From contig CAMVRT010000008.1 of the NCBI GenBank assembly GCA_947169975.1, positions 17,823 to 81,822 on the forward strand: 64,000 bases of DNA, in the 5' to 3' direction. The stretch comes from an uncultured Oscillospiraceae bacterium. Lineage in GTDB: Bacteria; Bacillota; Clostridia; Oscillospirales; Oscillospiraceae. A program made the translations under genes and the position numbers. Within the stretch, counting starts at the first letter, position 1, and the number at the start of each line of letters is the position of its first letter. Of the stretch, positions 7,949 through 56,027 are shown piece by piece. The notes under the pieces are model-generated. The model ran no database searches, was not told where the DNA came from, and saw nothing but the letters and a program-made list of their open reading frames with translations.

Positions 7949-8010
7949 AAGGATCCCTCTCTTTCTCATTCTGATGGTTTTCCGCCATCCTGTCGGAATC
8001 TGTCATGTTT

Positions 8011-17185: not shown

Positions 17186-19183
<1,998 letters not shown>

Positions 19184-19273
19184 GATATCTTCTCCTTTGA
19201 TCAGCCCCATACCGGGGGAAAATGAAAACCGACCGGAAAATCGAAAAAAGTGCAAAGTCCTGCTATTATGGTC

Positions 19274-19302
19274 AGTATACCACCCTTCCGCGGCAAGTGC
19301 AA
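19274..19302 (-). promoter_or_regulatory. sigmaA-type promoter for the CapD-like gene
   Basis: On the minus strand: TTGCAC, 17 nt, TGG-TATACT. Confidence 0.5.
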
Positions 19303-19309
19303 CCCTCAT

Positions 19310-20136: not shown

Positions 20137-22683
20137 TTACGGCATGGTGGGCGTCCAGTACTCCTGGCCGTACATATCGGTGAGGCAGAAGCAGGCCGCG
20201 GCGCGGAAGTCGCTGATATCCACGTCGCTGACGACCTCGTCGCCGGTCCAGGTCATCTGCTCGCCCAGCTTGTAGCTGTTCTGATAGGTGCCGTCATAGG
20301 TGTAGTAGTCGCACAGGAAGTCGATTTTGTCGCCGGGAGACAGCTCGATCTCGTTCTTGGGCACGGTGTCGGTCTCGCCGCCGGTATACACGGCCCGGGC
20401 GCCGGTCACATAGCCGTAGGGGTGGTCGTTGTCGAACACGATCAGCAGCTCGGCGCGCTGTGTGACGGGATCCGCGTCGTACTCCTCGCCGTTCTCGGTG
20501 TCGCTGAAGAGCTCGGACTTCTCCTCCGTGTGGGTGATCAGGCAGGGCACATGGCCGCGGATCACGTATTCGTCATCCTGGAAGGAGCTGTCGTCGTAGT
20601 AGTAGGCCACCACCTGCTCGTCGATGGCCAGCCAGGTGCCGTAGTACAGGCCCAGCAGGTCGCCGTCGCCGGTGAACTCATAGGTGCAGTCCATGCCCAG
20701 GTCGATATAGCCGCTGCCGTCATCCACCCAGACGTTGAGCTGCAGGTCGTTGACCATGGCCCACTGCTCCTCGCTCAGGTGCAGCACGGGCTGGTTCAGG
20801 TCGTTCCGCGTCCACTGCAGGGCGGAGCAATCGAACTGGTTGTCGGCCAGATATTCCTTGACCTGGTCGGCGTTCAGCTCCACGAAGCGCCCGTTGTCCA
20901 TGAGCCCGCCCAGCAGGCCCAGGATGGCGTCGGCGCCCAGGGCGCCGCCGGAGGAGCCGGAGCCGGTCTGTCCGCCGCCCTGAATGGCGTCCAGCGGGGA
21001 GAAGCTGCCCAGGATGCCGTTGGTGGCCACAGCCTGGCCGCCGCTCTCCATGCTGGCGAACTGCTGGATGCAGCGGGCGTAGTCGCTGTCCATGCCGATG
21101 GCCTTGTAGGTGGCCACGGCGGAGCTGACCTTGCCGGCGTTCTTATAGGGGAAGTAGATGGACAAGCCGTAAGCGTTGGTCATGGAGTCGGAGGTGCGGT
21201 TGTACTTCACCGCGCCCAGCAGGGCGCCGGCCAGGGCCTTACTCTCCCTGGTGTCCATATTGTAGGCCAGATGCACCAGATCCACCTGGTCGATCTTGTT
21301 GGAGGCCGCGAACTCGCGGGTGGAGCTGCGGGCAGTGGAGACCTTCTGGTACTGCTGGCCCTGCATCAGCTTGGAGGTGCCGGAGGCGAAGGCGGAGAGC
21401 TTGTCGGGCACGGTGTGGCTGAGCTCCGCCAGATCCACCACGGACAGCGTGGTGGCCTGACCGCGGCACTTGCGCGAGCACTCCTCCACGAAGCTGTCCA
21501 CGATCAGCTTGCCCAGATCCAGGGTGCTGATGGAGGTGTCCTTATCCAGGGCGGTGAGCCAGTCGGTGTAGTACCAGCCCACGCCGGGCTCCGTCTCCTC
21601 GGAGGCGATCATATAGTCGGCATAGGGCTCCAGCATGAGGCCGGTCTCCAGCGTGGCCATCAGGCAGGCGTCAAAGCCCACGAAGTCGAACTTCACGCCG
21701 CCGTCCTTCAGCGCCTTGTTGACGCCGGAGAGGTTCATGGAGCCGGCTCTGGCGTTCTTCTCATCGTAGCCGTAGCCGGAGAGGGAGCCGCCGCCGTGGT
21801 CCCACAGGATCAGCATGTTGCGGTTGGCGGGGTATTTCTGGGTGCAGTAGCGGATGAAGGCGGACAGGGTGTTGGGGTCGGTCATGACCTTGGCGCCGTC
21901 GTCCTTCAGCTTGGTCAGCTGGCCGTTGCGCACCTGCCAGATCTGGTTGGTGCTGCTGCTGACCACGTTGTTCTGCCACTGCTTGCATCCGCCGGTGTAG
22001 ATGATGACGTTGAGCCGGGAGTTCTTCACGCTGGCATTGAGGATCTCCTGGAGGTCCATGGTGCCCATGCGGCTGCGAGACTCCAGATCGGTGCCGCACA
22101 TATAGATCATCAGGGTCACGGTGTCTCTGCCGTCGTTCCGGATCTCGGTGAATTTGGCCCGGGAGCCGCTGGCCACGGATGTGCTGAGCCGCCCGGTGTT
22201 GGGCGTGGTAAGCCAGCTGCCGGAGGCAGCGCTGCCGCCGCTGTAGGACGAGCCGCCGCCCAGCAGACTGCCCAGGATGTTCAGTCCGCCGCTGCCGTAT
22301 GCGCCGGAGCTGGGGGTCTGCTGCTGGGTCACGGTGCTGGGCGCGAGGGCGCTGAGCAGCGAGCCGCCGCCGCTGTTGCCGCTGCCGCCAAAGAGGCCGC
22401 CCAGCAGGCCGCCCAGATTGCCTTTGGTCAGCAGCAGCACCACCACGATGATGATGAGCAGCCCGCCGCCGCCCTTGGCCGCGCGGGTGAGGTTGGCGTT
22501 GCCGCCGGAGCTGCCGGAGCCGCCGGTGGGTTTGAAGCCTTGGGCGGGGCGGTTGGCCTCTTTCCGTCCTTCATAGCCGTCCTGACGGCCCACCGGACCG
22601 GTGTTCAGGCCCTCGCCCCGTCTGTAGAGGCCCTTGCCCTTGCCGGTCACTTTCTTTTCCCGACCGTTGGGTCTGTTTTCCAT
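20137..22683 (-). CDS. membrane-anchored clostripain-family (C11) cysteine peptidase
   Basis: N-terminal basic segment, one TM segment and a Gly/Ser-rich linker. These are followed by LMIYMCGTDLES, ILWDHGGG (His) and GFDACLMATLE (Cys), typical of peptidase C11. The RBS is GGAGGGA. Confidence 0.75.
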   Translation of the reverse strand: MENRPNGREKKVTGKGKGLYRRGEGLNTGPVGRQDGYEGRKEANRPAQGFKPTGGSGSSGGNANLTRAAKGGGGLLIIIVVVLLLTKGNLGGLLGGLFGGSGNSGGGSLLSALAPSTVTQQQTPSSGAYGSGGLNILGSLLGGGSSYSGGSAASGSWLTTPNTGRLSTSVASGSRAKFTEIRNDGRDTVTLMIYMCGTDLESRSRMGTMDLQEILNASVKNSRLNVIIYTGGCKQWQNNVVSSSTNQIWQVRNGQLTKLKDDGAKVMTDPNTLSAFIRYCTQKYPANRNMLILWDHGGGSLSGYGYDEKNARAGSMNLSGVNKALKDGGVKFDFVGFDACLMATLETGLMLEPYADYMIASEETEPGVGWYYTDWLTALDKDTSISTLDLGKLIVDSFVEECSRKCRGQATTLSVVDLAELSHTVPDKLSAFASGTSKLMQGQQYQKVSTARSSTREFAASNKIDQVDLVHLAYNMDTRESKALAGALLGAVKYNRTSDSMTNAYGLSIYFPYKNAGKVSSAVATYKAIGMDSDYARCIQQFASMESGGQAVATNGILGSFSPLDAIQGGGQTGSGSSGGALGADAILGLLGGLMDNGRFVELNADQVKEYLADNQFDCSALQWTRNDLNQPVLHLSEEQWAMVNDLQLNVWVDDGSGYIDLGMDCTYEFTGDGDLLGLYYGTWLAIDEQVVAYYYDDSSFQDDEYVIRGHVPCLITHTEEKSELFSDTENGEEYDADPVTQRAELLIVFDNDHPYGYVTGARAVYTGGETDTVPKNEIELSPGDKIDFLCDYYTYDGTYQNSYKLGEQMTWTGDEVVSDVDISDFRAAACFCLTDMYGQEYWTPTMP

Positions 22684-22769: not shown

Positions 22770-23009
22770 TTTTTTTTGCATCGGCTGCATTATATTATCG
22801 GACGACAGCGCGGCATCGGTCGAAAAATGCCGAACAGGCCGGCGTCCACCCTCCGTTTTCACCGCAGGGAGGCTCTCCGCGCCTGCCCAGAAGCCTTCCT
22901 GCCCCGGGGAGAAGGCGGCGCGCAGCTCCGGATGCGGGACGGCATCGCCGCCGTAACGGATGCAGGGTCATTGCCGCGCCGCCTCGCCGACTCCTCCGCC
23001 AGATTGCCA

Positions 23010-23038
23010 CTTGCGTTCGGAGCCCCTTTGCCCTATAA
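23010..23038 (+). promoter_or_regulatory. sigmaA-type promoter for the MalY-like / MurF-LRR pair
   Basis: TTGCGT, 17 nt, TATAAT. Confidence 0.45.
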
Positions 23039-23079
23039 TAATGCTCGGAAAAACAAGAAAAAATACAGGAGGGCTTCCC

Positions 23080-24261
23080 ATGGAACGCTTTGACCGCGCG
23101 TATTTTGACGCACCGCAGGATCGCCGGAACACCGGCTCCATTAAATACGGCACCCCTCCGGCCGGCGCGCCGGAGGACGTGATCCCCATGTGGGTGGCGG
23201 ATATGGACTTCCCCACGCCTCCCGCCGTGGCCGCCGCCCTGCGCCGGGCCGGTGAGCGCACCATCTTCGGCTACACCGCCGTGGACGGGAGCCACTGGGA
23301 CACTGTGGCAAGCTGGTATCACCGCCGCATGGGCTGGAAGACGGAGCCGGACTGGTTCTCCTCCGTGCCCAGCGTTCTCTCCGGCGTCAGCGCTGCCGTG
23401 CGCACCTTCGCCGCCCCCGGCGAGGGCGTGGTGCTGTGCCAGCCGGTGTACTACCCCTTCGCCCGCATCATCAGCGGCTGCGGCCGCAGTCTGCGCGTCG
23501 TTCCCCTGCGTCTGGAGGGCACGCGCTACACCTTCGACTACGAAGCCATTGAAAAAGAGCTGCGGCGCGTGGATTGTAAAGTATTTCTCCTTTGCAACCC
23601 TCATAACCCCGTGGCCCGTGTCTGGACGGCAGAGGAGCTGCAAAGGCTGGGCGAGCTCTGCCTGAAAAACCACGTGGTCATCGTCTCCGACGAGATCCAC
23701 GCCGACCTGATCCTGGACCGGCGGCGCCATGTGCCCATGGCCTCCGTGTCGCCGGAGATCGCGCAGATAACCGTCACCGCCATGGCCCCCACCAAGACCT
23801 TCAACATGGCGGGCATTCCCGCCGCCCATCTGATCATCCCCAATGCCGACATGCGTGAGCGTGTCAGCGCCACCTGCTGGGCCTCCGGCATGGCGGGCTG
23901 GGGCGTGGCCTCCATGATGGCGGCCCGCGCCGCCTACGGTGAGAGCGAGCCGTGGCTGGAGGGTCTGCTGGACTACCTGCGCGGCAGCCGCGATCTGCTG
24001 TATGAGGCCTTCCCCGCCGGCTCTCCCATCGCCTGCCTCCCGGTGGAGGGCACGTACCTTGCGTGGCTGGACTGCCGCGGTCTGGGCCTCACGGAGGAGG
24101 CCCTCCACGACCTGTTTCTGAAAAAGGCCGGGGTCTGGCTGGACGACGGCGACATGTTCGGCAAGGGCGGCCAGGGCTTCATGCGATTGAACTTCGCCTG
24201 CCAGCGCGATACGCTCACCGAGGCCGTCCGCCGCATCAAGACCGCCGCCGGCATGAACTGA
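23080..24261 (+). CDS. MalY/PatB-family PLP-dependent C-S lyase (class I/II aminotransferase fold)
   Basis: Start ATG 23080 after ACAGGAGGG. Motifs RRNTGSIKYG, IPMWVADMDF, LCNPHNPV, VSDEIHADL and the PTKTFNMAG PLP-lysine motif. Confidence 0.85.
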   Translation: MERFDRAYFDAPQDRRNTGSIKYGTPPAGAPEDVIPMWVADMDFPTPPAVAAALRRAGERTIFGYTAVDGSHWDTVASWYHRRMGWKTEPDWFSSVPSVLSGVSAAVRTFAAPGEGVVLCQPVYYPFARIISGCGRSLRVVPLRLEGTRYTFDYEAIEKELRRVDCKVFLLCNPHNPVARVWTAEELQRLGELCLKNHVVIVSDEIHADLILDRRRHVPMASVSPEIAQITVTAMAPTKTFNMAGIPAAHLIIPNADMRERVSATCWASGMAGWGVASMMAARAAYGESEPWLEGLLDYLRGSRDLLYEAFPAGSPIACLPVEGTYLAWLDCRGLGLTEEALHDLFLKKAGVWLDDGDMFGKGGQGFMRLNFACQRDTLTEAVRRIKTAAGMN

Positions 24262-24282: not shown

Positions 24283-26301
24283 ATGCTCAACGAACTGTTA
24301 CACACCAATCTGACCCTGGGCAAGGTGGCCGCCGTCTGCGGGGCGACTCTGCCCGCCGGTCTGGACGGCGACGCCTCCTGCGGCCGCGTGCTGACCCAGG
24401 CGGTGTATGTCAAGCCCGGCGACGTGGTCATCAGCGCCGGCTGGTATTTTGACCAGCGGATCATTCCCCCCGCACTGGAGAAGGGGGCTGCGCTGGTGAT
24501 CTGCTCGGCCAAGGCCGCCCAGCAGTATCCCGATCCCCGGGTGACGGCGGTGGACGACCCCCAGGAGGCCGTGCGCCGGTTCCAGCGCTGGTGCGCCGAG
24601 GGCTGCCGCGCCAAGCGCATCGCCATCACCGGCAGCGTGGGCAAGACCACCACCACCGGCCTCATCAACTCCGTGCTCACCAAGTGCTATCCCACCCTGA
24701 CCCATCACACCATGGCCAACAGCCACGGCGCCATATTGCGCAATGTCCAGAAGCTGCGTCCCAACCATCAGTACTGGGTGCAGGAGGTGGGCGGCGTCCA
24801 GCCGGGCTACATTGAGAGCACGGCTAAATTCCTCTGCCCCGACGCGGTGGTGCTGACCAACATCGGCGAGTCCCACCTGAACCTCTACAAGACCAAGGAG
24901 GGCATCCTCCGCGACAAGGCCAGTCTGGAGCGCTATGCCAAGCCCGACGCGGTGGTGATCATCAACAGCGACGATGAGATGCTGCGCAGCGCCTCCTACA
25001 CCCACCGGGTCATCACCTGCTCCTATGCCGATCCCGCCGCCGACTACCACGCCGAGGACGTGCGGACGGAGCTGGACGGCGTGGTCTTCACCGCTGTGTG
25101 CAAGGACGGCGAGAGGTGCGAGATCCGCCTCCACCTCTACGGCGAGCACAATGTGTACAACGCCCTGTCCGCCGTGGCGGTGTGCCGCTGGGCGGGCGTG
25201 CCGCTGGAGAAGATCGCCCGGCTCATGGCGGACTATCACCCCGACGGCATGCGCCAGAACATGATCCACGTGGGCGGGTACAACCTGCTGGTGGACACCT
25301 TCAACGCCGAGCCCAAGACGGTGCTGCTGTCGGCCCAGACGCTGGAAAAGCTGCCGGTGCCGGAGGGCGGCCGCCGGATCTTCGCCACCGGCCATATCGA
25401 CAAGCTGGGCGAACACTCCCCGGAGATGCACGCCCATCTGGGCCACGATCTGGCGAAGCTGCAGCTGGATCAGGTGCTCTTCTACGCCGGGGACAGCCGC
25501 TATGCCTATGACGCCATGGTGGCCGACGGCTGCACCAACGCATTGATGTTCACCGACCGCGGCGAGCTGGACGACTGGCTGCGGCGGAACGTGACGCGGC
25601 AGGACGTGGTGTTCTTCAAGAGCGGCCAGTTTGAGGCGGCTCTTGCCAAGACGGTGGACCACGTGTTCGGCACCAGCTTCCAGAACGAGCAGCAGTTCAA
25701 CAACGGCGATCCGGTCACCACGCCGGATGGCTTCAAGCTGCGGCTGCGTATGGACGGCATCGCCGAGGTGGAGGGCTACACCGGCGCCGCCGCCGATGTG
25801 GTGATTCCCGCCACATACGGCGAGCACACGGTGATCCGCATTTCCCCGGAGGCCTTCAAGCGGAACAAGACCATGACCTCTGTTGTGATCCCGGACACGG
25901 TGGTCAGCATCGGCGAGGAGGCCTTTTACTCCTGCTCCCATCTGACCTCCCTCCGCCTGCCTGCCGGGCTGAAGATCGTGGGCAAAAACGCCTTCAATTA
26001 CTGCCGCTCCCTGAAAACGCTGAACATTCCGGAGGGCGCCATCCATCTGGATCGCCACGCCTTCTACGACTGCAAGCGGTTGGAGATCGTGACCATCCCC
26101 GCCTCGGTGGGCTTCATCGGCGAGGAGGCCTTCGGCACCACCGTCCAGCGCAGCCGTAAGGTGCATTTCCACTGTGTCCCCGGCTCCGTGGCGGCGGAGA
26201 TGGCGGCCCACCTTCCCCCTCCCCGCCCCCTGTCCCAGGTGGTCGAGGGCAAGGTCAGGCGTGTCGCCAAAGTGGTCACCAAAAAACTGGCCGGACAGTG
26301 A
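24283..26301 (+). CDS. MurF-like Mur-ligase fused to a C-terminal BspA-type leucine-rich-repeat (LRR_5-like) domain
   Basis: Residues 1-460 align end to end with MurF (ITGSVGKTTT P-loop, TNIGESHL, INSDDE, GEHNVYNAL, DTFNAEP, FFKSGQFE). Residues about 490-640 carry IP..V..IG..AF..C..L repeats. There is no signal peptide. Confidence 0.8.
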   Translation: MLNELLHTNLTLGKVAAVCGATLPAGLDGDASCGRVLTQAVYVKPGDVVISAGWYFDQRIIPPALEKGAALVICSAKAAQQYPDPRVTAVDDPQEAVRRFQRWCAEGCRAKRIAITGSVGKTTTTGLINSVLTKCYPTLTHHTMANSHGAILRNVQKLRPNHQYWVQEVGGVQPGYIESTAKFLCPDAVVLTNIGESHLNLYKTKEGILRDKASLERYAKPDAVVIINSDDEMLRSASYTHRVITCSYADPAADYHAEDVRTELDGVVFTAVCKDGERCEIRLHLYGEHNVYNALSAVAVCRWAGVPLEKIARLMADYHPDGMRQNMIHVGGYNLLVDTFNAEPKTVLLSAQTLEKLPVPEGGRRIFATGHIDKLGEHSPEMHAHLGHDLAKLQLDQVLFYAGDSRYAYDAMVADGCTNALMFTDRGELDDWLRRNVTRQDVVFFKSGQFEAALAKTVDHVFGTSFQNEQQFNNGDPVTTPDGFKLRLRMDGIAEVEGYTGAAADVVIPATYGEHTVIRISPEAFKRNKTMTSVVIPDTVVSIGEEAFYSCSHLTSLRLPAGLKIVGKNAFNYCRSLKTLNIPEGAIHLDRHAFYDCKRLEIVTIPASVGFIGEEAFGTTVQRSRKVHFHCVPGSVAAEMAAHLPPPRPLSQVVEGKVRRVAKVVTKKLAGQ

Positions 26302-26436
26302 TGCCCCCGCCCCGTCATTGCGAGCCGCCAACGGCGCAGCCGACGGATGAGGTGTCATTGCGAGGGCTCAACGGGCCCGTGGTAATCCGTAATCCCCTGC
26401 GTAAAACAAAAGAGGAGAGGCAAGCGCCTCTCCTCT

Positions 26437-26687: not shown

Positions 26688-27572
26688 TCAGCTTCTGGGG
26701 TTGTTGGCGTTGAGAGCCTCCCGGGCCTCCTTCAGCTCGTCGGGCGCCGGGTTCTTGCCCAGCACGGCGGTCTCCCACTTCTCGCCCCACCACCACCAGC
26801 GGGTGGCCAGGCGGCCGATGGTGCCCACATTCTCCACACGGCCCTGGCTGTCCAGGGTCATGCCGTCCCGCCAGTACACCTTGTCCGGCATGTCGGTGAG
26901 CATCACGTACTCCACGGCGTAGATGTTGATGGTGCTGTCATCGGTCTCATCCGTGTAAGAGTGCAGATACTCCAGGCGGGTGATCTCCCAGCCGGTGTAG
27001 GGCTGGCCGTTGCCCACCTCGTCCTGATAGATCTCCTCGATGGCCGCGCCCAGTACCTCGCTGTAGCGCTCCATGGCCTGCTCGCTGATGACCTTCTCCT
27101 CGTCGCGGTAATGGCGCAGGAGGGTGTAGAGCTCCTCTCCCTCCACGAACACCCGGCCATACTCGCCGCCCTTGTAGGCGGTGATGCGCACCAGATTCTC
27201 CGTCAGGCCGCAGGTCAGCTCCAGCCACAGGTCGCTGTCATCTCCGGCGGCATTCTCCATGTGGTAGGTGCGGCTCCAGTACCCGTTTTTGCCCTCGCCC
27301 AGATTGGCGGCCTCGCCGTCGGCGACGGTGCGTACGTTTTTCGCGGCGGCCTGCAGCGCCTGGGAGAGCTGGAAGCGCGTAATGCGCCTGTCGGCAAACT
27401 CCTCGTCCACCGGGAAATTGATGGGCTCCACGTTCCGGATCAGGTTGATGACCTTGATGGAACCCTGTTCCGTGGGCTGCTGCTCCTCCTTCTTCTGCTG
27501 CCAGGGGAGGCCGCAGCCGGTCAGTCCCAGCGCCAGCACGGCGGCCAGCAGCAGGGTGATGATTCTCTTCAA
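26688..27572 (-). CDS. lipoprotein, unknown function
   Basis: Signal peptide KRIITLLLAAVLALGLTGCG. I prefer the TTG start at 27572 (AGGAG 10 nt upstream). The alternative ATG at 27599 has an RBS only 1 nt away. Confidence 0.65.
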   Translation of the reverse strand: MKRIITLLLAAVLALGLTGCGLPWQQKKEEQQPTEQGSIKVINLIRNVEPINFPVDEEFADRRITRFQLSQALQAAAKNVRTVADGEAANLGEGKNGYWSRTYHMENAAGDDSDLWLELTCGLTENLVRITAYKGGEYGRVFVEGEELYTLLRHYRDEEKVISEQAMERYSEVLGAAIEEIYQDEVGNGQPYTGWEITRLEYLHSYTDETDDSTINIYAVEYVMLTDMPDKVYWRDGMTLDSQGRVENVGTIGRLATRWWWWGEKWETAVLGKNPAPDELKEAREALNANNPRS

Positions 27573-27755
27573 AACGATCAACTCCTTTCGGTTTGGCATG
27601 CTCCTTTGAACCGTATTGTAGGACAAAACCCGGCACAGGTCAATATGTTGTGCCGTATTGTAATCAAAGCTGGCCCCAATTCGTCGCTTCTGTTACCGAT
27701 TCGACACTCCCGACGGACAAATTACGGCTTTCCCCGCCGAAATACGGCGCTGCCC

Positions 27756-28903: not shown

Positions 28904-31585
28904 TCACTTCACCGTCAGCACGGCGGGATCGGATTCGGTCCGGATGCCGCCGCCGTCGGTGATGACGCAGCGGTACTGCTGGCCGTTCCGGGCGATGGTG
29001 GCGGGGACGGACAGCGCGGCGGTGTCGGCTCCGGTCATGCCGGAGTTGACCCAATTGCTGCCGGTGTAGTACTGCCACTGATAGGCAAGCTCCACGCCCT
29101 GGGCCTCCACGGTGAAGGTGGCGGTCTCGCCCACGGCGGCGGTCACATCCTGAGGCTGGGCGGTGATGACGGTCTCCACCAGCAGCTTGGCCGCGTCGGA
29201 GGTGTACTGCTTGCCGTTGGCGTCCCTCACCACGCAGTGGTATTTCTGTCCGTTCCGGGCGGCGGTGACGCCGATCTCCAGCGTGTCGGTCCGGGCTCCT
29301 GCGGCGGTGGAGTTCACCCACTTGTCGGAGCCGGGGGCCTTGTACTGCCACTGGTAGGTGAGGCCCACACCGGTGGCCTCCACGTGGAAGGCGGCGGTCT
29401 CGCCCAGCGGCGCCCGGACGGTCCGGGGCTGCTCCGTGATGGCGATCTTTACCGTCAGCCTGGCGGCGTCGGAGGTGTACTGCTTGCCGTTGGCGTCCCT
29501 CACCACGCAGTGGTATTTCTGTCCGTTCCGGGCGGCGGTGACGCCGATCTCCAGCGTGTCGGTCCGGGCTCCTGCGGCGGTAGAGTTGACCCACTTGTCG
29601 GAGCCGGGTGCCTTGTACTGCCACTGATACGTAAGTCCCACGCCGGTGGCCTTCACGGTGAACTTCGCCTTGTCGCCCAGCACGGCGGAGACCGCCTTGG
29701 GCTGCTTCGTGATAGCGATCTTCACCGTCAGCCTGGCGGCGTCGGAGGTGTACTGTTTGCCGTTGGCGTCGGTGATGACGCAGCGGTACTGCTGGCCGTT
29801 CCGTGCGGCGGTGACGGGCACCTCCAGCGTGGCGGTCTTGGCCCCGGTCATGGAGGAGTTGGCCCACTTGGAGCCGGTGTAGTACTGCCACTGGTATTTG
29901 AGGCCCACGCCGGTGGCCTTCACGGTGAACTTCGCCGTGTCGCCCACCGTGCCGCTGGCGTTCTTGGGTTGGGCGGTGATATCAGTCTTGATGTACAGCT
30001 TTACCCAGTCGGTCATGATCTCCTCGGTCGCGTCGCTGTAAAGAACGCAGTAAAACACAGCGCCGTTGTACTCGGCCTTAACAGGCACCTCCAGGGTATC
30101 GGTGTTGTAGCCGGTAAAGGGGCAGGGCTCGGTGCCGTTTGTGCTCGAGGAGCTCCAATACCACAGGTACTTGCTGCAGTAACCGTCTGTCTTGACGGAG
30201 AAGACAGCGGTTTCTCCGATGGCTGCGGCAACGTCCGTGGGCTGACCGGTGATGGTGAGCAGCTTGTGCCAGAACAGATCGCCGCCGTAGTTACCCATAC
30301 CCGTCCATGAGCTGTCACCGCCGGGATAGAAGGCCGTGGCGGACACGCCGTAGAAGGCGTTATCACCGATGGCGGGCTTGCTGCCCTCGAACCACATCAG
30401 CTCCATCCCCGCGTTGTAGAATGCAGCCTCACCGATGGTCTTCAGCGCGGCGGGGAAGCGCACCTCCGTCAGGTTGTCGCAGTGATAGAAAGCGGCCTCG
30501 CCGATGGTGACCAGCTTCCCGGGCATGTTAATGCTGTACAGATACGTGCAATAGTAGAACGCCCCGTCGCCGATCTTCGTGATGTTGTTGGACATCGTCA
30601 TTCTGTACAGAGAGGTGCAGTTGAAGAAGGCCCCCTCGCCCAGGGTCATCACGGAATCTCCCATAGCGACGCTGTAAATGTTCGTGTTGGCAAAGGCATA
30701 GTCGCCGACGGCCGTCACGGTGGAGGGGATCTTGTACTGTCTGGTGCCCTCGGCGCAGTACTCGATGAGCCGGGTCTTGGCCTTGTTCATCAGGGCCTTG
30801 CCGTCGGTGGCGTAATAGGGGTTGCCGCTGTCCACCACCAGGGTGGTCATGGCGGTGTTGGACACGAAGGCGTCGGGCTCCACCTTGGTGACGCTGGCGG
30901 GAATGGTGACGCGGGTCATGCTGAGCCAGCCGCAGATGGAGTTGCTGCCGATGGTCTTGACGGTGGAGGGAATGGTGTAGGTAGTGTGGGCCTGGGCGCA
31001 GTACTCGATAAAGCGGGTCTTGTCCTTGTTGAACAGGGCCCGTCCGTCGGCGCTGTATTTGGTGTTGCCGCCGTCCACCTGGAAGCCGGTCATAGCACCG
31101 CAGCAGGAGAAGGCGGCGGTGCCGATCTCGGTGACGGAGGCGGGCACACGCATGCTTGTCACGCTGACGCAGCCGAAGAAGGCCATAGGACCGATCTTCT
31201 TCAGGCCGCCGGGCAGGGTGATGCTCTCCAGGCCGTAGCAGTAGGAGAAGGCGCCCTCGCCGATCTCCGTCACGGTGGAAGGGATGGACACGGACGTGGC
31301 GTTGGCGCACAGAATGAAGGCCACGTCGCCGATCCTCGTCACGCCGGAGCCCACCACGATCTTCTCAATGCTCTCGGCGCTCTCGATCCAGGGCGGCAGA
31401 TTCTTGTCGGTAAAATCCGTCATGGCGCCCTTGCCGGAGATGGTCAGGGTGCCGCCGTCCAGCTTCCAGGTCACGTTGCTGCCGCAGGAACCGCTCTGGG
31501 CGGCCTCGGCGGTGGCAGCCCCGAAGGGCACCATCACCAGCACCATGACCAGGATGAGCAGCAGGCTTGTCAGTTTACGCTTCAT
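28904..31585 (-). CDS. secreted/cell-surface protein with N-terminal BspA-type LRR domain plus five Ig-like repeats
   Basis: RBS AGGAGGA. Signal peptide MKRKLTSLLLILVMVLVMVPFGAATAEA. About 14 IP.(S/T)V..IG..AF..C repeats are followed by 5 repeats of about 91 aa (..QP..V...G..A.F.V.A.G.GL.YQWQY.......W.NS...GA.T.TL...V.AARNGQ.Y.CV..D.NG...S..A.L.V). Confidence 0.8.
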   Translation of the reverse strand: MKRKLTSLLLILVMVLVMVPFGAATAEAAQSGSCGSNVTWKLDGGTLTISGKGAMTDFTDKNLPPWIESAESIEKIVVGSGVTRIGDVAFILCANATSVSIPSTVTEIGEGAFSYCYGLESITLPGGLKKIGPMAFFGCVSVTSMRVPASVTEIGTAAFSCCGAMTGFQVDGGNTKYSADGRALFNKDKTRFIEYCAQAHTTYTIPSTVKTIGSNSICGWLSMTRVTIPASVTKVEPDAFVSNTAMTTLVVDSGNPYYATDGKALMNKAKTRLIEYCAEGTRQYKIPSTVTAVGDYAFANTNIYSVAMGDSVMTLGEGAFFNCTSLYRMTMSNNITKIGDGAFYYCTYLYSINMPGKLVTIGEAAFYHCDNLTEVRFPAALKTIGEAAFYNAGMELMWFEGSKPAIGDNAFYGVSATAFYPGGDSSWTGMGNYGGDLFWHKLLTITGQPTDVAAAIGETAVFSVKTDGYCSKYLWYWSSSSTNGTEPCPFTGYNTDTLEVPVKAEYNGAVFYCVLYSDATEEIMTDWVKLYIKTDITAQPKNASGTVGDTAKFTVKATGVGLKYQWQYYTGSKWANSSMTGAKTATLEVPVTAARNGQQYRCVITDANGKQYTSDAARLTVKIAITKQPKAVSAVLGDKAKFTVKATGVGLTYQWQYKAPGSDKWVNSTAAGARTDTLEIGVTAARNGQKYHCVVRDANGKQYTSDAARLTVKIAITEQPRTVRAPLGETAAFHVEATGVGLTYQWQYKAPGSDKWVNSTAAGARTDTLEIGVTAARNGQKYHCVVRDANGKQYTSDAAKLLVETVITAQPQDVTAAVGETATFTVEAQGVELAYQWQYYTGSNWVNSGMTGADTAALSVPATIARNGQQYRCVITDGGGIRTESDPAVLTVK
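28910..30010 (-). repeat. 273-bp coding tandem repeats (Ig-like modules)
   Basis: For example, 29199-29345 is nearly identical to 29472-29618. The period of 273 bp equals 91 codons. Confidence 0.8.
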
Positions 31586-31721: not shown

Positions 31722-33443
31722 TCACGGCTCATAGGGCACGCAGGTAAAGTCCGCCCCGTGCTCGCTGAACATCTCCTCCAGCTCAGCAGGGGTCGTCTCC
31801 GCCCACTCCCCTGTGTCGGGGTAGTAGACCGTAGCCGTCATGCGGTCACTCCACGGATACTGCTCGTTCTCTCTTCCAAATTGCGGGATCCTCTCACCGA
31901 GAAACGTGATGGTCGACAGATTGCTGCACCTTAAGAAGCATTCGCAGCCGATGGACTCCACCCCGCGGCCGATGGTGACCTCCCGCAGACTCTCGCACCC
32001 GATGAACGCGCATCCGTTTTCGGTGCCGATCTGCCTGACGCTGTCAGGGATCTCTACTCTCTCCAGCGCCTCACAGTACCCGAATGCGCCATGGTCGATG
32101 GTTTCCAGCCCGTTGCCCAACTCCAGCACGCGCATATCCTTAAAATCCATAAAGGCCTGCTCGCTGATGCGCTGTACGCCGGGAGCGACGACCACCTTAC
32201 GGACCCTCTCGCTCCACTGTTTGTAATTCCACGCCCGCCGTGTATCGATATTCCCGGCCTTTTCCTGCAGCTCCTTGTCATTCCACATGGCTCCGGTGCC
32301 GGAAATCGTCAGGGTATCGTCGGCGTCCAGCGTCCACTCCAGGTCGTCGCCGCACCTGCCCCGCGCTCTGTATCGCGTCGCTGTCAATGTGGCCGGCTCT
32401 GTGGTCAGGGTGTCGCCGTTGGCGTCGGTGATGATACAGCGGTACCGATAGCCGCTGCGCGCCTCCGTCACCGGGACGGAGAGCGTGTCCGTGTCCGCCC
32501 CCTCAAAGGAGGAATCGCACCAGTGGCCGCCATCCGGCTCTCTGTACTGCCACCGGTATCTTAATGCCGGACCGGCTGCGTCCGCGATAAAGGCTGCCGT
32601 ATCACCGAGACATACGGTCTGGTCACCGGGCTGGTGAAATATTTTGCTCCGCACGGCCAGCTTGGCCGCCTGGGAGTAGGTCGGTCTGCCATAGGCTTCG
32701 TAGATCTTACAGCGGTACAGCAAGCCGTGATAGTTGGGATCAGCTTTGACGGTGATTTGGGGCGTCCGAATGCCTTTATGGTCCATCCCCTCCCACACGA
32801 GAGTGTTCCATACCTTCCCGCCGTCGCTGCTCTTTTGCCAGTAATACGACAGCCCGTCGCCCTGGGCCTCTACAGTGAAGGTCACCTGCTCAAATGCCTC
32901 GGCGGAGGCGTCCTCCGGCTGGCGGGTGATCTTCACCCCCGCCGCCGTCGGCGTCGGCTCGGGCTCAGGCTCCGGCTCCGGCTGGGGTTCCGGTTCCGGC
33001 TCCGGCTCGGGCTCCGGCTGGGGCTGGGGTTCCGGTTCCGGCTCGGGCTCCGGCTGCGGCTGCGACTGGGTGTAGCGCTCCTTCTCGATGCCGGAGTGCA
33101 GCTCGCCCTTCTTGGCAGCCCACCGGGCCACCGTAGCCCGGAAGACCGGCGAGGCGGCAAAGGCCACCGACAGCGACAGCACCAGCACCATGGCCACAAT
33201 GGCCACCCGGCTGACGAGGCGCAGGGTCTTTCTGCCCGCAGCGCGTCTTGTGCCGGCGGATGCGCCCCGGCGGATGATCCGCTCACAGGCGCCGCGCAGG
33301 CTCTCCGGCAGTGCCGCGCCGCTGATGCGCAGCCGCTCGCTTTCGGCCTGAGCCGCTTCTCCCTCCGCCGCCGCCACATCCTCCATCAGCAGGGTCAGCA
33401 GAGCGTTTTCATAGTCCTCGTACAGGCTCTCCCGTCTTGTCAT
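31722..33443 (-). CDS. putative anti-sigma factor with extracellular (PE/PQ)n linker, Ig-like repeats and LRR domain
   Basis: Its ATG 33443 overlaps the sigma-factor stop (ATGA). It has an N-terminal cytoplasmic segment of about 90 aa and one TM segment ([16 protein letters not shown]). These are followed by the [12 protein letters not shown]... linker, 2-3 Ig-like repeats of the same type as in 28904-31585, and BspA-type LRRs. Confidence 0.6.
32950..33066 (-). repeat. coding (CCG GAG/CCC CAG)n microsatellite, PE/PQ linker
   Basis: ggctccggctccggctggggttccggttccggc... in frame within the anti-sigma gene. Confidence 0.8.
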
Positions 33444-33997
33444 CTTTTCACCCACTCTCCATAGGCCTCCATGGCCCTGCGCCGGGCGCGGGTCAGCTTC
33501 ATACGCACGCTGTCCGTCCGGCAGCCCAGCTCCTCGGCGATCTCCTCGTTGCTTTCGCCCAGAATGTACTTCTTCTCCAGGATGGTCCGGTCCGCCTCCG
33601 GCAGCGTCTGCCAGATGGCGTAGAAGTCCGTCCGCTCCTCGCCGCGCACCACCACCCACTCCGCGGAGCACTCCGTGTCGCAGAGCTCGGCGGCATCCTC
33701 CGGCGCCCGCTGGTCGGTGTGCTTCGTCCGCACCTGCTGGGCGCGGAGCTGATTCCGCGCCGTGTTCTTTACAGTATTAACGATATAGCCCGCCAGATTG
33801 CAACGGGGCAGGCCCATAATTCTTCGAATATGGCGGATCAGCCTGACAAAGGACTCCTGCACCACGTCCTCGGCGGCCTCGTCCTCGTCCACGAACCGTC
33901 TGGCTGTGCTGTACATCAGCGGCCCGTATTCATCCAGAACGGACTCCATAAACGAACGCTCCTCGGCTGTCTGCAGGATCAGTTGAAATGGCAGCAC
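33440..33997 (-). CDS. ECF-type RNA polymerase sigma-70 family factor
   Basis: GTG start 33997 after GGGAGAAGGAG. Region 2 is [12 protein letters not shown]. Region 4 is [28 protein letters not shown]. Confidence 0.8.
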
Positions 33998-38323: not shown

Positions 38324-38344
38324 TCGGAATGACAGGTGGGGTGT

Positions 38345-39817
38345 TCAGTCGTTGTCCTCGTCATCGTCCTCATCATCGTCATCGTCATCGTCATCGTTAT
38401 CATCGTCGTCATCGTCGTCCTGCTCCTCCCGGGCAGGCGGATCATCCTCGTCGTCACTGCGGTCACCACCGACCGGTGCGGCGCGGCGATCATCCTCGTC
38501 ATCGTCATCGTCGGGATCATCCACGTCATCGTCATCGTCGGGATCGTCCACGTCATCGTCATCGTCGGGATCGTCCACGTCATCGTCATCGTCGTCGGGA
38601 TCATCCACGTCATCGTCATCGTCGTCGGGATCGTCCACGTCATCGTCATCGTCGTCGGGATCGTCCACGTCGTCGTCATCGTCATCGGGATCGTCCACGT
38701 CGTCGTCATCGTCGGGATCGTCGTCATCGTTCCGGTCATCGTTGCCCGGTGCGGTGTTGCGGCGTTCGTCGGCATCGTCGTCATCATCGTCATCATCCGC
38801 GTCGTCGTGATCATCGTCGTCGCGGTCATCCGCGTCGTCGTGATCGTCATCATCGTCATCATCCGCGTCGTCGTGATCATCGTCGTCGCGGTCATCCGCG
38901 TCATCGTCATCGTCATCGTCGTCGTCGCGGTCATCCGCGTCGTCGTGATCATCGTCATCGTCGCGGTCATCCGCGTCGTCGTGATCATCATCGTCGTCGC
39001 GGTCGTCGTCGGGCCACTCCAGCTCCCACTCCTGATCGTCGGCGTCCCACTCCAGGTAGTCCCGCAAATTCACGTTCTGGTCCGTCAGCAGGCGCACCAG
39101 ATCGGTCATGGACAGCTCCGCCAGATCCTCCAGATCCAGGTTGGGCCAGTCCCGGGCCAGCTCCATCACCAAAACGGCCTTGCCGGGCGTGATGCCGTAT
39201 TTTCGTGCCAGCGCGGCGGCCTCATCGTCCACATGCACGCTCTTGCTGAGCACCAGTCCCGATCCCGTGGCGTCCTGGAGGGACTCGCCCAATCGTGCGG
39301 ACAGCTCCCGCTGCAGCTGGGCGGCGTAGTCCCCGTTCTCGCTCTCCACGCTCAGCAGCACCACGTTCTTCGTCTCGGTCAGATAACCGTTGCGAACCAT
39401 GGAGCCCAGAATGGCGTTGAGCGCCACGTCCACATCTGTCTGTTCCAGGTCCATGCCCTCCAGGATCTTCTCGCCGTCGGAATTATCGGCCCGGGCAGAG
39501 ATCACGCGGCGCTCGCTGTTGACACGCAGCTCCACAGACGGGTTCACATCCAGATAGACGGTGGCCTCCGGCTTGGGCTTTACCAGCATACCGGGCAGCA
39601 GCGCCAGGGCCAGCAGGGCGGCAGCGGCGGCGAGGGCGGCAGCATAACGCCATACCCGGTTTTTCTTCTTCGGAGCAGCGGTGCCCTCCAGATACCACTC
39701 GTCACCGGTAGCAGGTGTAAAGGGTCGGCTCCAGATTTCCTCCGCACGATTAGGTGCGGCATTCTCCGCAGCCCGGCGCACACGGGCCTCGGCGGCGGCA
39801 TTGGTCAGTTGAATCAT
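38345..39817 (-). CDS. putative anti-sigma factor with extracellular domain and a poly-aspartate tail of about 215 aa
   Basis: Its ATG 39817 overlaps the stop of the ECF sigma gene (ATGA). It has one TM segment (YAAALAAAAALLALALL) and a folded domain (VYLDVNPSVELRVN...). The C-terminal part runs from WPDDDRDDDDDHDD... to the C-terminus and is almost only D with scattered H/A/R/P/V/E/N. Confidence 0.65.
   Translation of the reverse strand: MIQLTNAAAEARVRRAAENAAPNRAEEIWSRPFTPATGDEWYLEGTAAPKKKNRVWRYAAALAAAAALLALALLPGMLVKPKPEATVYLDVNPSVELRVNSERRVISARADNSDGEKILEGMDLEQTDVDVALNAILGSMVRNGYLTETKNVVLLSVESENGDYAAQLQRELSARLGESLQDATGSGLVLSKSVHVDDEAAALARKYGITPGKAVLVMELARDWPNLDLEDLAELSMTDLVRLLTDQNVNLRDYLEWDADDQEWELEWPDDDRDDDDDHDDADDRDDDDDHDDADDRDDDDDDDDDADDRDDDDHDDADDDDDDDHDDADDRDDDDHDDADDDDDDDDADERRNTAPGNDDRNDDDDPDDDDDVDDPDDDDDDVDDPDDDDDDVDDPDDDDDDVDDPDDDDDDVDDPDDDDDVDDPDDDDDVDDPDDDDDEDDRRAAPVGGDRSDDEDDPPAREEQDDDDDDDNDDDDDDDDEDDDEDND
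38348..39010 (-). repeat. coding GAY-rich tandem repeats (27/30-bp and about 36-bp units)
   Basis: catcgtcatcgtc(gtc)gggatc(a/g)tccacgt repeated 8 times (38500-38720). A second block of catccgcgtcgtcgtgatcatcgtcgtcgcggt-type units lies at 38770-39000. All are in frame. Confidence 0.85.
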
Positions 39818-40383
39818 TGCATTTCCTCCAATTTACGGCGGAGCTTGGCGATGCCCCTGCTGTACTTGCTCAGCACAGTGGACAGCGGACGCTCCAGCAG
39901 TTTGGCAATTTCTCTGTGCTTCAGTCCGGACACGGCGTGCAGCACCACGATGCGGCACTCCTCCTCGGACAGTGCGGAAAAGGCGGTCTCCAGTGCCATG
40001 CGGTCGTCCCGGTCGGAGATGCGGGACAGATCCGCGATCTGCTCCCCCTCCGGCAGCGCGGCGGTGCGTTTTCCGCTGCGCAGCTGCATCAGACACACGT
40101 TTCTGGCGATGGTCAGGATCCACGCTTTGGGTTTCCCCTGGGGCTTGTAGAGATGGGCGGCCTCCCGGATCCGCAGGAAGGTGTCCTGCACGGCGTCCTC
40201 GGCGTCAGGGGTGCTGCGGAGCATGGAGAGCGCAAATCCGAACACCATGCCGCGATACGCCTCGTACAGCGCATGAAAGGCGTCTCTGTCGCCACGGGCG
40301 ATCCTCTCCAGCCATTTCTCGTCGTCCCTCTCCGCCGTATCCCCCTGGGACACAGCAAGGGCGGTGTTGCCAAACAGCAGCAT
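39814..40383 (-). CDS. ECF-type RNA polymerase sigma factor
   Basis: GDRDAFHALYEAYRGMVFGFA, AEDAVQDTFLRI, and region 4 GLKHREIAKLLERPLSTVLSKYSRG. I prefer start ATG 40383 (GAGGTGA 7 nt upstream). In-frame ATGs at 40404 and 40428 are possible alternatives. Confidence 0.8.
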   Translation of the reverse strand: MLLFGNTALAVSQGDTAERDDEKWLERIARGDRDAFHALYEAYRGMVFGFALSMLRSTPDAEDAVQDTFLRIREAAHLYKPQGKPKAWILTIARNVCLMQLRSGKRTAALPEGEQIADLSRISDRDDRMALETAFSALSEEECRIVVLHAVSGLKHREIAKLLERPLSTVLSKYSRGIAKLRRKLEEMQ

Positions 40384-40561
40384 GGAACTTTCACCTCGAT
40401 TCATGGAAAGTACTCCGGTTTGTTCCATTATATCCCACCATCTCCTTCGCTACAAGCATCAAACGCGCCCGGCCGGCGCAGATACCGGTCCGTCTCACGG
40501 CAGCCGTTCCCGTTTTCTGCCTCTATAATGCGGCGGAGCCCGGTTTTATCGCAGAGCGGAG

Positions 40562-40619: not shown

Positions 40620-41753
40620 TCAGCCGTACAGGAACTCCTGCAGGATCTTGGCATTGGCGGTGAAATCCACCGCGTAGAGGGAGCGGCCGCCCATACCCCG
40701 CATGCCGCCGTAGGTACCGGAGGCGGGGATGGTCATCTGCTCCAGGGTGACGCCCTGGAATTTGGGAACCAGCTCCAGGATCTCGCCCTTGGTCAGGTTG
40801 GTCATGACCAGAGGCAGCACCCGGTTGAGCGTGCTGTCCAGCTGAGCGGGATTGAGTCCCTTTGTCTGGTTGATGGCGGCCTGGATGACGGTGCGCTGGC
40901 GCTTGATGCGGGTCCAGTCGCTGTCGATCTTGCGGATCCGGGCATACTGCAGGGCAGTGAACCCGTACAGGTGGTTGGTACCCGCGGTAACGGGATGCTC
41001 GGGATCCATGTTGTTGAGGTAGTCGGCCTCGGCCTGGGTCAGGGTGATGTCCACGCCGCCGATGGCGTTGATGCCGGCGCGGAAGGTGCCGAAGTTCACG
41101 CGGACGTATTTATGTACGTCCACGCGGAAGCACTCCCGTACCTCCTGCATCATCAGGTCGGCGCCGCCGTAGCAGAAGGTATGAGTCAGCCAGTCCCACT
41201 GGCCCTTGTACTGACCGGACAGGATCGGCACGCCCATGCCGCGCTCCAGGCTGACCAGCTTGGCCCGGCCGGTGGACTTGTTCAGGGAGAGGATCATGCA
41301 GCTGTCGCCCCGGGCGAAGTTGCTGAAGCCCTCGGCGCGCTCGTCGGTGCCGATGAGCAGGATGTTGACGATGTTGTCGTCGTGCTTGATCTCCATGGTG
41401 GGAAGGGCGGTATAGGAAACGGACTCCGTGACCTCGATTCCCTCCTGCTCCATAGCCTCCTCCATCTCCTCCTGCTGCTTCTGCACGATGGGATCCTTGC
41501 CGTGGGCGATCTGGCGGTCCACCTTCTCGATGTGTTCCTGCTCCTCTTCCGCACTCTCGAAGTGCAGTCTTCCGTCGTAGGGATCATAGTGGATCTTGTC
41601 CAGCTTGGAATTGACATACAGGGCAATGGCTGCGGCGATGACCAGCAGCACGGCAAGGATGATCAGTACGATCTTCCAGCCCTTTTTCATCCGCCGTTTG
41701 GGTTTTTGGCTCCCCTTCTTTTCTGTGGGAGCGATTCTCGTACCTTTCTTCAC
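40620..41753 (-). CDS. LCP (LytR-CpsA-Psr) family wall-polymer ligase
   Basis: GTG start 41753 (AGGAG 7 nt upstream, 1 nt after the upstream stop). Motifs NILLIGTDER, RGDSCMILSLN, V.VNFGTF...INAIGGVDI and LQYARIR. It has an N-terminal TM segment. Confidence 0.85.
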   Translation of the reverse strand: MKKGTRIAPTEKKGSQKPKRRMKKGWKIVLIILAVLLVIAAAIALYVNSKLDKIHYDPYDGRLHFESAEEEQEHIEKVDRQIAHGKDPIVQKQQEEMEEAMEQEGIEVTESVSYTALPTMEIKHDDNIVNILLIGTDERAEGFSNFARGDSCMILSLNKSTGRAKLVSLERGMGVPILSGQYKGQWDWLTHTFCYGGADLMMQEVRECFRVDVHKYVRVNFGTFRAGINAIGGVDITLTQAEADYLNNMDPEHPVTAGTNHLYGFTALQYARIRKIDSDWTRIKRQRTVIQAAINQTKGLNPAQLDSTLNRVLPLVMTNLTKGEILELVPKFQGVTLEQMTIPASGTYGGMRGMGGRSLYAVDFTANAKILQEFLYG

Positions 41754-41754
41754 G

Positions 41755-54450: not shown

Positions 54451-54454
54451 GGTC

Positions 54455-55192: not shown

Positions 55193-55202
55193 GTGTTGCT
55201 CC

Positions 55203-56009: not shown

Positions 56010-56027
56010 TGGCAAACTTCCTTGTTC

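Follow-up and report, generated by a model that had tools for sequence, protein, structure and literature searches.

A stretch of 64,000 nucleotides from an uncultured Oscillospiraceae bacterium (contig CAMVRT010000008.1 of assembly GCA_947169975.1, positions 17,823 to 81,822), referred to below as the window, carries at positions 24283-26301 of its plus strand an open reading frame (ORF) for a 672-residue protein in which a cytoplasmic Mur-family ligase is joined to leucine-rich repeats (LRR) of the BspA type. This gene, here called the target, is preceded by a Shine-Dalgarno-like motif (AAAGGA) about 10 nt 5' of its ATG. Pfam recognizes Mur_ligase_M (PF08245) at residues 115-301 (E 4e-35), Mur_ligase_C (PF02875), marginally above its cutoff, at residues 324-446 (29.7 vs. 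28.4 bits), and LRR_5 (PF13306) at residues 520-620 (E 6.7e-25), while the top NCBIfam model is murF (TIGR01143). An initial annotation, made from the letters of the DNA, had described a MurF-like ligase fused to BspA-type repeats, and all the motifs that it quoted occur in the translation (LTLGKVAAVCGATL, ITGSVGKTTT, TNIGESHL, INSDDE, GEHNVYNAL, DTFNAEP and FFKSGQFE). The C-terminal region, whose assignment to the LRR class that annotation had singled out for verification, indeed scores well above the LRR_5 cutoff (87.9 vs. 27.7 bits).

The AlphaFold2 model of the whole protein, built from a 47-sequence family alignment, corresponds to a single compact and confident chain (pLDDT 93.7, pTM 0.88). 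Foldseek superposes its first ~466 residues on the Acinetobacter baumannii MurF (4qf5; 466 columns, TM 0.86), which means that all three Mur domains are present; a likeness to MurF had initially been claimed for about 460 residues. From the N-terminus, the protein comprises a domain of MurF-like fold recognized by Foldseek, in which conserved canonical residues are replaced (residues 1-110; 24283-24612), the central ATP-binding domain with an intact catalytic set (residues 111-322; 24613-25248), and the C-terminal Mur domain, with altered motifs but with R324, D338 and N341 kept (residues 323-470; 25249-25692). These are followed by the LRR domain, delimited by Pfam, PDB matches and the model, with a beta-hairpin cap, five LRR_5 units and a C-terminal cap (residues 471-645; 25693-26217), and finally by a cationic amphipathic helix, defined by charge, hydrophobic moment and the model (residues 646-672; 26218-26298). 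Domain scan and structural model, both of which had been proposed as checks, agree on the Mur plus LRR_5 architecture. No export signal or transmembrane (TM) segment is apparent in the target, in line with the initial description, as its N-terminus is not hydrophobic and its top Kyte-Doolittle 19-mer averages 1.15, against ~1.6 for TM segments. With Pfam domains above the gathering cutoffs, the invariant P-loop, Glu, His, Lys and Arg residues and the Mur fold, the target belongs in the Mur superfamily, and it is predicted to be a catalytically competent, cytoplasmic, ATP-dependent amide ligase whose fold is nearest to that of MurF.

The repeat domain is made of 23-residue units at 508-530, 531-553, 554-576, 577-599 and 600-622, with the cap at 623-645, which resolves an earlier count of four to five repeats into five; in the model, strands of this region recur at the same 23-residue spacing. 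Its PDB sequence matches are 4gt6, 4fs7 and TpLRR (6mlx). Set against other LRRs of the family, that of the target reaches 41-53% identity in closer members and 29-34% in the most distant members compared, while it shares 31-35% identity with the secreted LRR proteins encoded 3-6 kb away in the same window. Because the domain is closer to the family LRRs than to those of its secreted neighbours, the fusion appears to be old and not a recent capture, and the LRR has probably co-evolved with the ligase. The absence of an export signal, together with the fusion to an ATP-dependent enzyme, implies that this LRR must be cytoplasmic, and an N-terminal hydrophobic segment was found in none (0/110) of the family proteins. 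Moreover, the model of the target has a high pTM, which suggests defined packing between the LRR and the Mur domains.

The target is one representative of a large and uncharacterized family, here named Mur-LRR, that is distributed in Clostridia and in one Coriobacteriales metagenome-assembled genome (MAG), and in which the LRR is a constant C-terminal component of each module. PF08245 and PF13306 occur together in 105 of the 110 best database relatives, which come from independent assemblies, and a scan with two junction-specific peptide patterns retrieved the same fusion from 29 further metagenome loci. The junction itself (KSGQF...LAKTxDHVxGT) ranks among the best conserved stretches of the family. 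The closest named relative of the target is an Oscillospiraceae MAG protein. Source names were seen for a few members and do not go beyond "leucine-rich repeat protein" or "Mur ligase family protein". A profile search with a linker-plus-LRR alignment against 1.84 billion representatives was dominated by giant multi-repeat LRR_5 proteins and is uninformative on family size. No description of a Mur ligase combined with leucine-rich repeats, or of the gene cassettes described below, was found in the searchable literature. The family as such is thus known to databases under generic names; what appears to be new is a Mur-ligase branch with a fixed LRR domain and a new pathway context.

In proteins with several modules, each Mur module carries its own LRR. 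Among the 110 best relatives, 12 are fused with ATP-grasp domains (ATPgrasp_ST in 8, TupA in 3, YheCD in 1), three with PGA_cap and one with Peptidase_S11. The ATP-grasp fusions place the LRR between two catalytic parts, which favours the idea that it serves in docking. However, when a natural Mur-LRR-ATPgrasp_ST fusion was modelled with AlphaFold2, confidence was high for the Mur-LRR part but low for the linker (647-760), and the pTM was 0.65, so that a rigid LRR bridge between the two ligases is unsupported. Docking of the ligase to a partner enzyme or to an acceptor, as initially suggested, is plausible on these grounds; the LRR looks like a component of the ligase module itself and would act as an acceptor- or partner-binding platform rather than as a rigid bridge. 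The last 27 residues of the target carry a net charge of +6 and have a hydrophobic moment of 0.80, above the 99th percentile of the 11-mers of the protein, and are modelled as a helix at 650-671. About one quarter of the 47 members examined end in basic tails that are not homologous. Judging from its composition, the tail may be a membrane-targeting element, as would suit a ligase that acts on a lipid-linked polymer at the membrane's inner face. Some members depart from the common layout: P0014 (887 aa) is extended by a long coiled coil and, in place of the basic tail, is anchored by a C-terminal TM segment; in P0002 (1133 aa) the unit of Mur C-domain, linker and LRR is repeated and the chain ends in a basic tail; and P0012 (929 aa) has a second LRR domain.

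MurF adds D-Ala-D-Ala to UDP-MurNAc-tripeptide, and several lines of evidence separate the target from this housekeeping enzyme. The curated cutoff of TIGR01143 (MurF, EC 6.3.2.10) is 288.6 bits; the target scores 236.2 bits and its paralog in the window, described below, 209.4 bits, both short of the cutoff, and four other Mur-LRR members score 146-229 bits, while canonical MurF controls from Flintibacter muris, a Ruminococcus and an Oscillospiraceae MAG reach 405-424 bits. A genome-collection scan with the full-length family alignment, in which the P-loop became the search pattern, recovered at least 80 canonical murF loci in other genomes, mostly of Clostridia. Their products are 26-34% identical to the target and have no LRR, and many of these loci show a second Mur-ligase match immediately upstream, consistent with a murE-murF tandem. 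Used as an outgroup in a phylogeny, which had been called for initially and is here a neighbour-joining distance tree only, 38 of the recovered canonical MurF split from all Mur-LRR proteins in 45 of 50 bootstraps.

The same separation is seen at the level of residues. G117, G120 and K121 of the P-loop, N146, E168, H198, K212, G287, N290, R324 and D338 are invariant in the 47 family members, and the family-invariant catalytic residues of the target also occur in canonical MurF. Target and MurF have in common the three-domain fold, the P-loop, the Mg-binding Glu, the His, the conserved Lys (which is carbamylated in MurD, MurE and MurF), and the Arg and Asp-x-x-Asn motifs, and the acyl-phosphate chemistry is presumably the same. 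Yet more than 30 positions, each at least 85% conserved in the 38 canonical MurF, are replaced in the target, including the D..R and DG of the N-domain, the GN.NN.G.P loop, the GDMxELG motif and YNANPxS. In the N-domain, the canonical D..R, F, G and DG positions are occupied by Q39, V41, V49, A52, F56 and D57, and PF01225, which Pfam finds in the canonical MurF matches, is undetected in the target. In the C-domain, GDMxELG has become GHIDKLG (GDIAHMT in the paralog), YNANPxS has become FNAEPKT, and KGS has become KSG. In Mur ligases these replaced regions line the substrate cleft, and the N-terminal domain holds the UDP part of the precursor. Moreover, none of the dcw genes lies within the 64-kb window, and no murE, mraY or murD is found near the target. 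The target hence differs from MurF in score, clade, motifs of the N- and C-domains and location outside dcw, as well as in its LRR, its basic tail and its occurrence in several copies. It is very probably an accessory enzyme and not the D-Ala-D-Ala-adding MurF of the cell. The initial proposal that its substrate is probably not the peptidoglycan precursor gains indirect support from the scores, the clade, the replaced non-catalytic residues and the missing dcw genes, and further from the ligase-rich glycopolymer loci in which its relatives sit.

One such locus lies in the window itself. A paralogous Mur-LRR ligase of 651 aa is encoded on the minus strand at 46268-48223, has the same three Pfam domains as the target and is 39% identical to it over 636 residues, in agreement with the paralog of identical architecture pointed out initially; the two Mur-LRR copies lie within 22 kb. 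The paralog sits in a tight 13-gene operon, entirely on the minus strand. The operon order begins with the genes for polymer synthesis and export (52694-56714, assigned by Pfam), namely a Bac_transf priming transferase, an ABC-2 permease, an ABC ATPase, a TagF-like Glyphos_transf enzyme and a possible nucleotidyltransferase of 204 aa, for which only a weak NTP_transf_3 match (E 0.002) and no PDB relative were found. Next come a single-domain ATPgrasp_ST ligase of 352 aa (51649-52707, Pfam E 4e-38), a tandem-duplicated ATPgrasp_ST ligase of 721 aa (49431-51596, Pfam E 3e-35), the N-terminal half of which aligns to the C-terminal half of its own paralog, and, immediately upstream of the Mur-LRR gene, an AlaDH/PNT-family dehydrogenase with AlaDh_PNT_N and AlaDh_PNT_C domains (48244-49410). 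After the Mur-LRR gene there follow a second tandem-duplicated ATPgrasp_ST ligase, of 653 aa and with an internal duplication (44281-46242, Pfam), and three distal genes (40620-44288, Pfam) for a secreted Flg_new-repeat protein with a signal peptide, a 329-aa protein of unknown family and an LCP (LytR-CpsA-Psr) wall-attachment enzyme with a TM-like segment. The genes are laid out as a wall-polymer pathway that depends on an ABC transporter, with four amide ligases in addition. In both long ATPgrasp_ST proteins, the ATP-grasp module is present a second time, in degenerate form, as the N-terminal half.

Amide ligases lie together with genes for glycopolymer synthesis and export in the paralog operon and in at least 10 related loci, though not in the immediate neighbourhood of the target. 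The relative P0006 (61% identical to the target) is placed among genes for GT4, Bac_transf, two GT2, ATPgrasp_ST, a short AlaDh_PNT protein, ATPgrasp_TupA, UDP-glucose dehydrogenase (UDPG-DH) and ABC-2/ABC components, and the same set is found reshuffled in a series of metagenome and MAG loci (L099, L105, L113, L117-122, L123, L124, L009 and L010). When tblastn was applied within 12 kb of the 28 distinct modules that lie on a locus of at least 9 kb, an ATP-grasp ligase was found near 15 of them and an enzyme of AlaDH or octopine-DH type near 12; among the same 28 modules, TupA accompanies 7 and UDPG-DH 5. The recurrent partners, in shuffled orders, are ATP-grasp ligases, carboxyethylornithine-synthase-like or octopine-dehydrogenase-like enzymes, UDP-glucose dehydrogenase, glycosyltransferases and TagGH-like exporters, and many relatives are accompanied by an opine-forming dehydrogenase and amino-acid racemases as well.

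Two loci illustrate how far the ligase content can expand. In the context of P0110 (L095:1-21119), three Mur-LRR genes occur with two ATPgrasp_ST genes, Ddl, an Asp/Glu racemase, an fn3-YkuD L,D-transpeptidase, LicD, a cytidylyltransferase and a transglutaminase-core protein. In that of P0107 (L125:1-13522), five Mur-LRR modules share one operon with a Ddl-like ligase, Octopine_DH and an Asp/Glu racemase, being distributed over a 1474-aa two-module protein, two PGA_cap-Mur-LRR proteins (one of them also with Peptidase_S11) and one Mur-LRR-S11 protein; this operon looks like a modular assembly line. At another locus (L004:8873-15194), a gene for a 315-aa tRNA-synt_1c protein, a GluRS-like fragment, lies directly 5' of the Mur-LRR-ATPgrasp_ST fusion P0016, and a divergent MurT/GatD pair is found just downstream.

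The dehydrogenases of these cassettes deserve separate consideration. In the reactions of both the carboxyethylornithine-synthase and the octopine-DH type, pyruvate is condensed with an amino group. In the cassettes, the short AlaDh_PNT protein is not an alanine dehydrogenase, since it scores 99 bits on the alaDH model against a cutoff of 392; its relatives at 71-78% identity bear the name N(5)-(carboxyethyl)ornithine synthase at NCBI and JGI, these being automatic names. The protein (L092:8017-8991; P0304-P0423) is kept at about 70% identity or more across at least 120 clusters, two members of which are so named by NCBI/JGI. In other loci, an Octopine_DH protein fills the corresponding spot beside the Mur-LRR gene or genes. 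As for the dehydrogenase of the window (48244-49410), it gives 277 bits with alaDH TIGR00518, below the cutoff of 391.85, and is 29% identical to the carboxyethylornithine-synthase-like protein of the related cassettes, values that establish it neither as a true alanine dehydrogenase nor as a carboxyethylornithine synthase. Glycans with chemistry of this kind have been described: in bacterial glycans, uronic acids can bear amino acids through amide bonds, galacturonic acid with N-epsilon-(1-carboxyethyl)-lysine being one instance (PMC10609480), and the teichuronopeptide of Bacillus halodurans C-125 is an acidic wall polymer of polyglucuronic acid and poly-gamma-glutamate in whose synthesis tupA is involved (PMC8153356).

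Taken together, architecture and context make it somewhat probable that the target adds amino acids to the peptide side chains of an exported, teichuronopeptide-like wall glycopolymer, in cooperation with ATP-grasp ligases. In the mechanism envisaged, the enzyme would form an acyl-phosphate on a carboxylate, which is the standard Mur chemistry and for which the catalytic residues are retained, and an amino acid would then be joined to the activated carboxylate, completing one step of a short peptide or amino-acid side chain on the polymer. ATP-grasp ligases would act alongside, as would, in many relatives, the opine-forming dehydrogenase and the amino-acid racemases. The LRR, predicted with confidence in one model with the Mur domains, might hold a bulky acceptor or a partner enzyme, while the basic amphipathic tail would bring the ligase to the membrane. 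The polymer would be made at the cytoplasmic face of that membrane, exported by the TagGH-like ABC transporter and attached by the LCP enzyme. The substrates and the nature of the polymer, like the role of the LRR and membrane targeting, are what we infer from these associations.

A number of observations weigh against this proposal. The target is not itself in a glycopolymer cassette, its neighbours being a PatB-type C-S lyase and a clostripain-like peptidase, and its tie to the ATP-grasp operon 18 kb away rests on the contexts of relatives. UDP-glucose dehydrogenase and TupA are absent from the operon of the window, where ATPgrasp_ST and Glyphos_transf are found instead. About 40% of the distinct family loci have no ligase partner within 10-12 kb, and a recurrent "isolated" type adjoins an ABC importer, which in the sole Pfam-annotated locus of this type (L093) is a LIV-type amino-acid importer. 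Other contexts lean towards peptidoglycan, with MurT/GatD adjacent, a BlaR-like sensor, Ddl, YkuD or S11 domains. The loci sampled were taken through one sequence pattern and from the longest contigs, and are biased to that extent. Finally, the model of the natural fusion yields no confident geometry of LRR relative to ATP-grasp.

Comparison with known systems places the Mur-LRR proteins among several precedents. In cyanophycin synthetase CphA1, an ATP-grasp G domain and a Mur-like M domain are combined with an N domain that tethers the polymer. The Mur-LRR system resembles it in that Mur-type and ATP-grasp ligases cooperate to make ribosome-independent amide bonds, the 12 fused relatives joining both in one chain, and by analogy the extra non-catalytic domain could hold the growing substrate. 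The target, however, is not a cyanophycin synthetase (TIGR02068, 34.5 bits vs. a cutoff of 850) and has itself no ATP-grasp domain; the family differs from CphA1 in domain order, in having an LRR as the extra domain, and in its context of glycopolymer synthesis and export. A possible likeness to teichuronopeptide synthesis lies in the genes for a TupA-type ATP-grasp enzyme and UDP-glucose dehydrogenase that stand beside Mur-LRR genes in many loci; the operon of the window differs in having ATPgrasp_ST and a TagF-like enzyme in their stead, and we know of no Mur-family ligase or LRR described for teichuronopeptide. PgsB/CapB, MurT, the pseudomurein pMur ligases and CfbE are precedents for Mur folds recruited to other amide-forming pathways. 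The scores of the target against the cutoffs of these families are low (19/222.7 bits for PgsB, TIGR04012; 33/800 for MurT; 65/560 for pMurC; 36/250 for CfbE), and to our knowledge none of them carries an LRR, while the PGA_cap (CapA-like) domains fused to some Mur-LRR proteins constitute a tie to the PgsB/CapB systems. With the BspA-type LRR_5 surface proteins (TpLRR 6mlx, PcpA 4cp6, 4gt6 and 4fs7 from Bacteroides/Clostridia, HupY/LrrG), the target shares the repeat family, the N-terminal beta-hairpin cap and the C-terminal "GSYA..YA" cap. Those proteins are secreted or surface-exposed, whereas the LRR of the target has no export signal and is carried by an ATP-dependent enzyme.

Among the alternatives, the foremost, unlikely but with some evidence in its favour, is that the enzyme modifies peptidoglycan, acting on UDP-MurNAc-peptide or lipid II to add a branch or an alternative terminal residue in the manner of MurT/GatD or D-aspartate ligase, with the LRR as its dock at the membrane stages of peptidoglycan synthesis. 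In fold and in family the enzyme is closest to MurF, the relative P0016 adjoins MurT/GatD and P0082 a BlaI/BlaR-like pair, and distant members occur with Ddl, Asp/Glu racemase and YkuD L,D-transpeptidase, some being fused to Peptidase_S11. Against it stand the replacement of residues conserved in the N-terminal domain of canonical MurF, the lack of dcw genes in the window, and the make-up of the cassette, which with its own priming transferase, glycosyltransferases, UDP-glucose dehydrogenase and ABC exporter is that of a separate polymer pathway.

Quite improbable, in our view, is that Mur-LRR and ATP-grasp ligases synthesize a soluble or secreted peptide or polyamide that is free of any glycan, for example a secondary metabolite or a storage or capsule polymer comparable to cyanophycin or poly-gamma-glutamate. 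This would agree with the established cooperation of Mur-like and ATP-grasp domains in cyanophycin synthetase, with PGA_cap representing the CapA family of poly-gamma-glutamate systems, and with two loci, L125 and L126, that consist of nearly nothing but ligase modules, Ddl-like ligases, racemase, opine dehydrogenase and PGA_cap. However, these two are short contigs (14.7 and 9.9 kb), so that glycan genes could lie just beyond their ends, and the scores for cyanophycin synthetase and PgsB are far below cutoff. In addition, the window and at least nine other loci embed the ligases among glycosyltransferases, a TagGH-like exporter and, in two loci, LCP.

That the target is the ordinary D-Ala-D-Ala-adding MurF of the cell with an additional domain is very improbable: murF is its top family match and the catalytic set is complete, but its score lies under the curated cutoff that three canonical Clostridia MurF pass with ease, its clade is apart from theirs, two divergent copies share one window with up to five modules per operon elsewhere, and no murE, mraY or murD is nearby, in contrast to the frequent upstream Mur match at canonical Clostridia murF. 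The notion of two genes joined by a sequencing frameshift or misassembly, for which no supporting point was found, can be discarded in view of the 105 relatives with both domains, the 29 further loci, the conserved junction and the confident one-chain model, and the fusion is accepted as a single gene.

The surroundings of the target are of a different nature from those of the paralog. A gene for a PatB-family C-S lyase, a class I/II pyridoxal phosphate (PLP) enzyme (22960-24261, plus strand; TIGR04350, 421 bits vs. a cutoff of 340), ends 21 nt before the target and is probably co-transcribed with it, and a clostripain-like gene lies upstream of the pair in divergent orientation. As this trio was found again only in relatives with 86% identity to the target, it says little on function; PatB was set aside for now as a functional partner on the same grounds. 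The clostripain-like Peptidase_C11 protein (20137-22683, minus strand), basic over a long stretch at its N-terminus and with a single TM-like segment, adjoins PatB and Mur-LRR also in GCA_002361515.1. Between the target and the convergent minus-strand gene at 26688-27626, a hairpin with a perfect 11-bp, GC-rich stem and a T-run (26411-26436) looks like a shared terminator. Five kilobases upstream of the target, a CapD-like Polysacc_synt_2 dehydratase of 707 aa with several TM-like segments (17186-19309, minus strand) hints at amino-sugar synthesis for a surface polymer.

Two further LRR proteins noted initially were also recovered. That at 28904-31585 (minus strand) has three LRR_5 stretches, Ig domains and a clear signal peptide and is secreted, while the presumed anti-sigma protein, placed here at 31722-33671 (minus strand; 649 aa), has a C-terminal LRR_5 domain and one TM-like segment. 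The gene of the latter overlaps the 3' end of an ECF sigma gene just upstream (31722-33997 for both, minus strand), and this single-pass protein resembles an anti-sigma factor whose sensor domain is an LRR. Another ECF sigma gene (39814-40428, minus strand) is followed by an RsgI-like anti-sigma gene (38345-39817, minus strand), and a 604-aa ORF on the opposite strand of the same DNA (38336-40150, plus strand), of low complexity and rich in V, I and L, is probably spurious. Finally, a family of small proteins is repeated at 6782-7969, 8117-9148, 58001-58717 and 58844-59809 (all on the minus strand); three have an N-terminal zinc ribbon, attached to lipocalin-like or DUF5640 domains or, for one of them, to a trypsin-like protease domain instead, and the 58001-58717 protein gives only weak DUF5640/lipocalin-like matches.

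The multi-module operons invite a broader and more tentative extension of the wall-polymer proposal, which we regard as doubtful but worth stating. Mur-LRR modules, up to five per operon, might be the blocks of an unrecognized modular, ribosome- and nonribosomal peptide synthetase (NRPS)-independent peptide-assembly system by which gut Clostridia would furnish a polymer of teichoic or teichuronic type with a second peptide, similar to that of peptidoglycan. Its partners would be ATP-grasp and Ddl-like ligases, racemases, CapA/MslH-like domains and opine-forming dehydrogenases, and the peptide could contain D-amino acids and N-(carboxyethyl)-amino acids and be cross-linked after export by YkuD-type or transglutaminase-type enzymes. 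By analogy with the tethering N domain of CphA1, the cytoplasmic LRR would serve as the acceptor holder of each module.

Mur ligases are textbook enzymes of peptidoglycan synthesis and antibiotic targets. The generic names under which Mur-LRR members are deposited make it easy for annotation to miss either the enzymatic half or the domain fusion. The recurrent carboxyethylornithine-synthase-like and octopine-dehydrogenase-like partners lead to the prediction of opine-type amino acids in Gram-positive wall polymers. The family would also provide a rare case of a BspA-type LRR used inside the cell as part of an enzyme, and a tractable system for learning what such repeats bind. If the proposed role is correct, many abundant gut Clostridia make peptide-decorated wall polymers with a chemistry, a biosynthesis and host interactions that would all be new.

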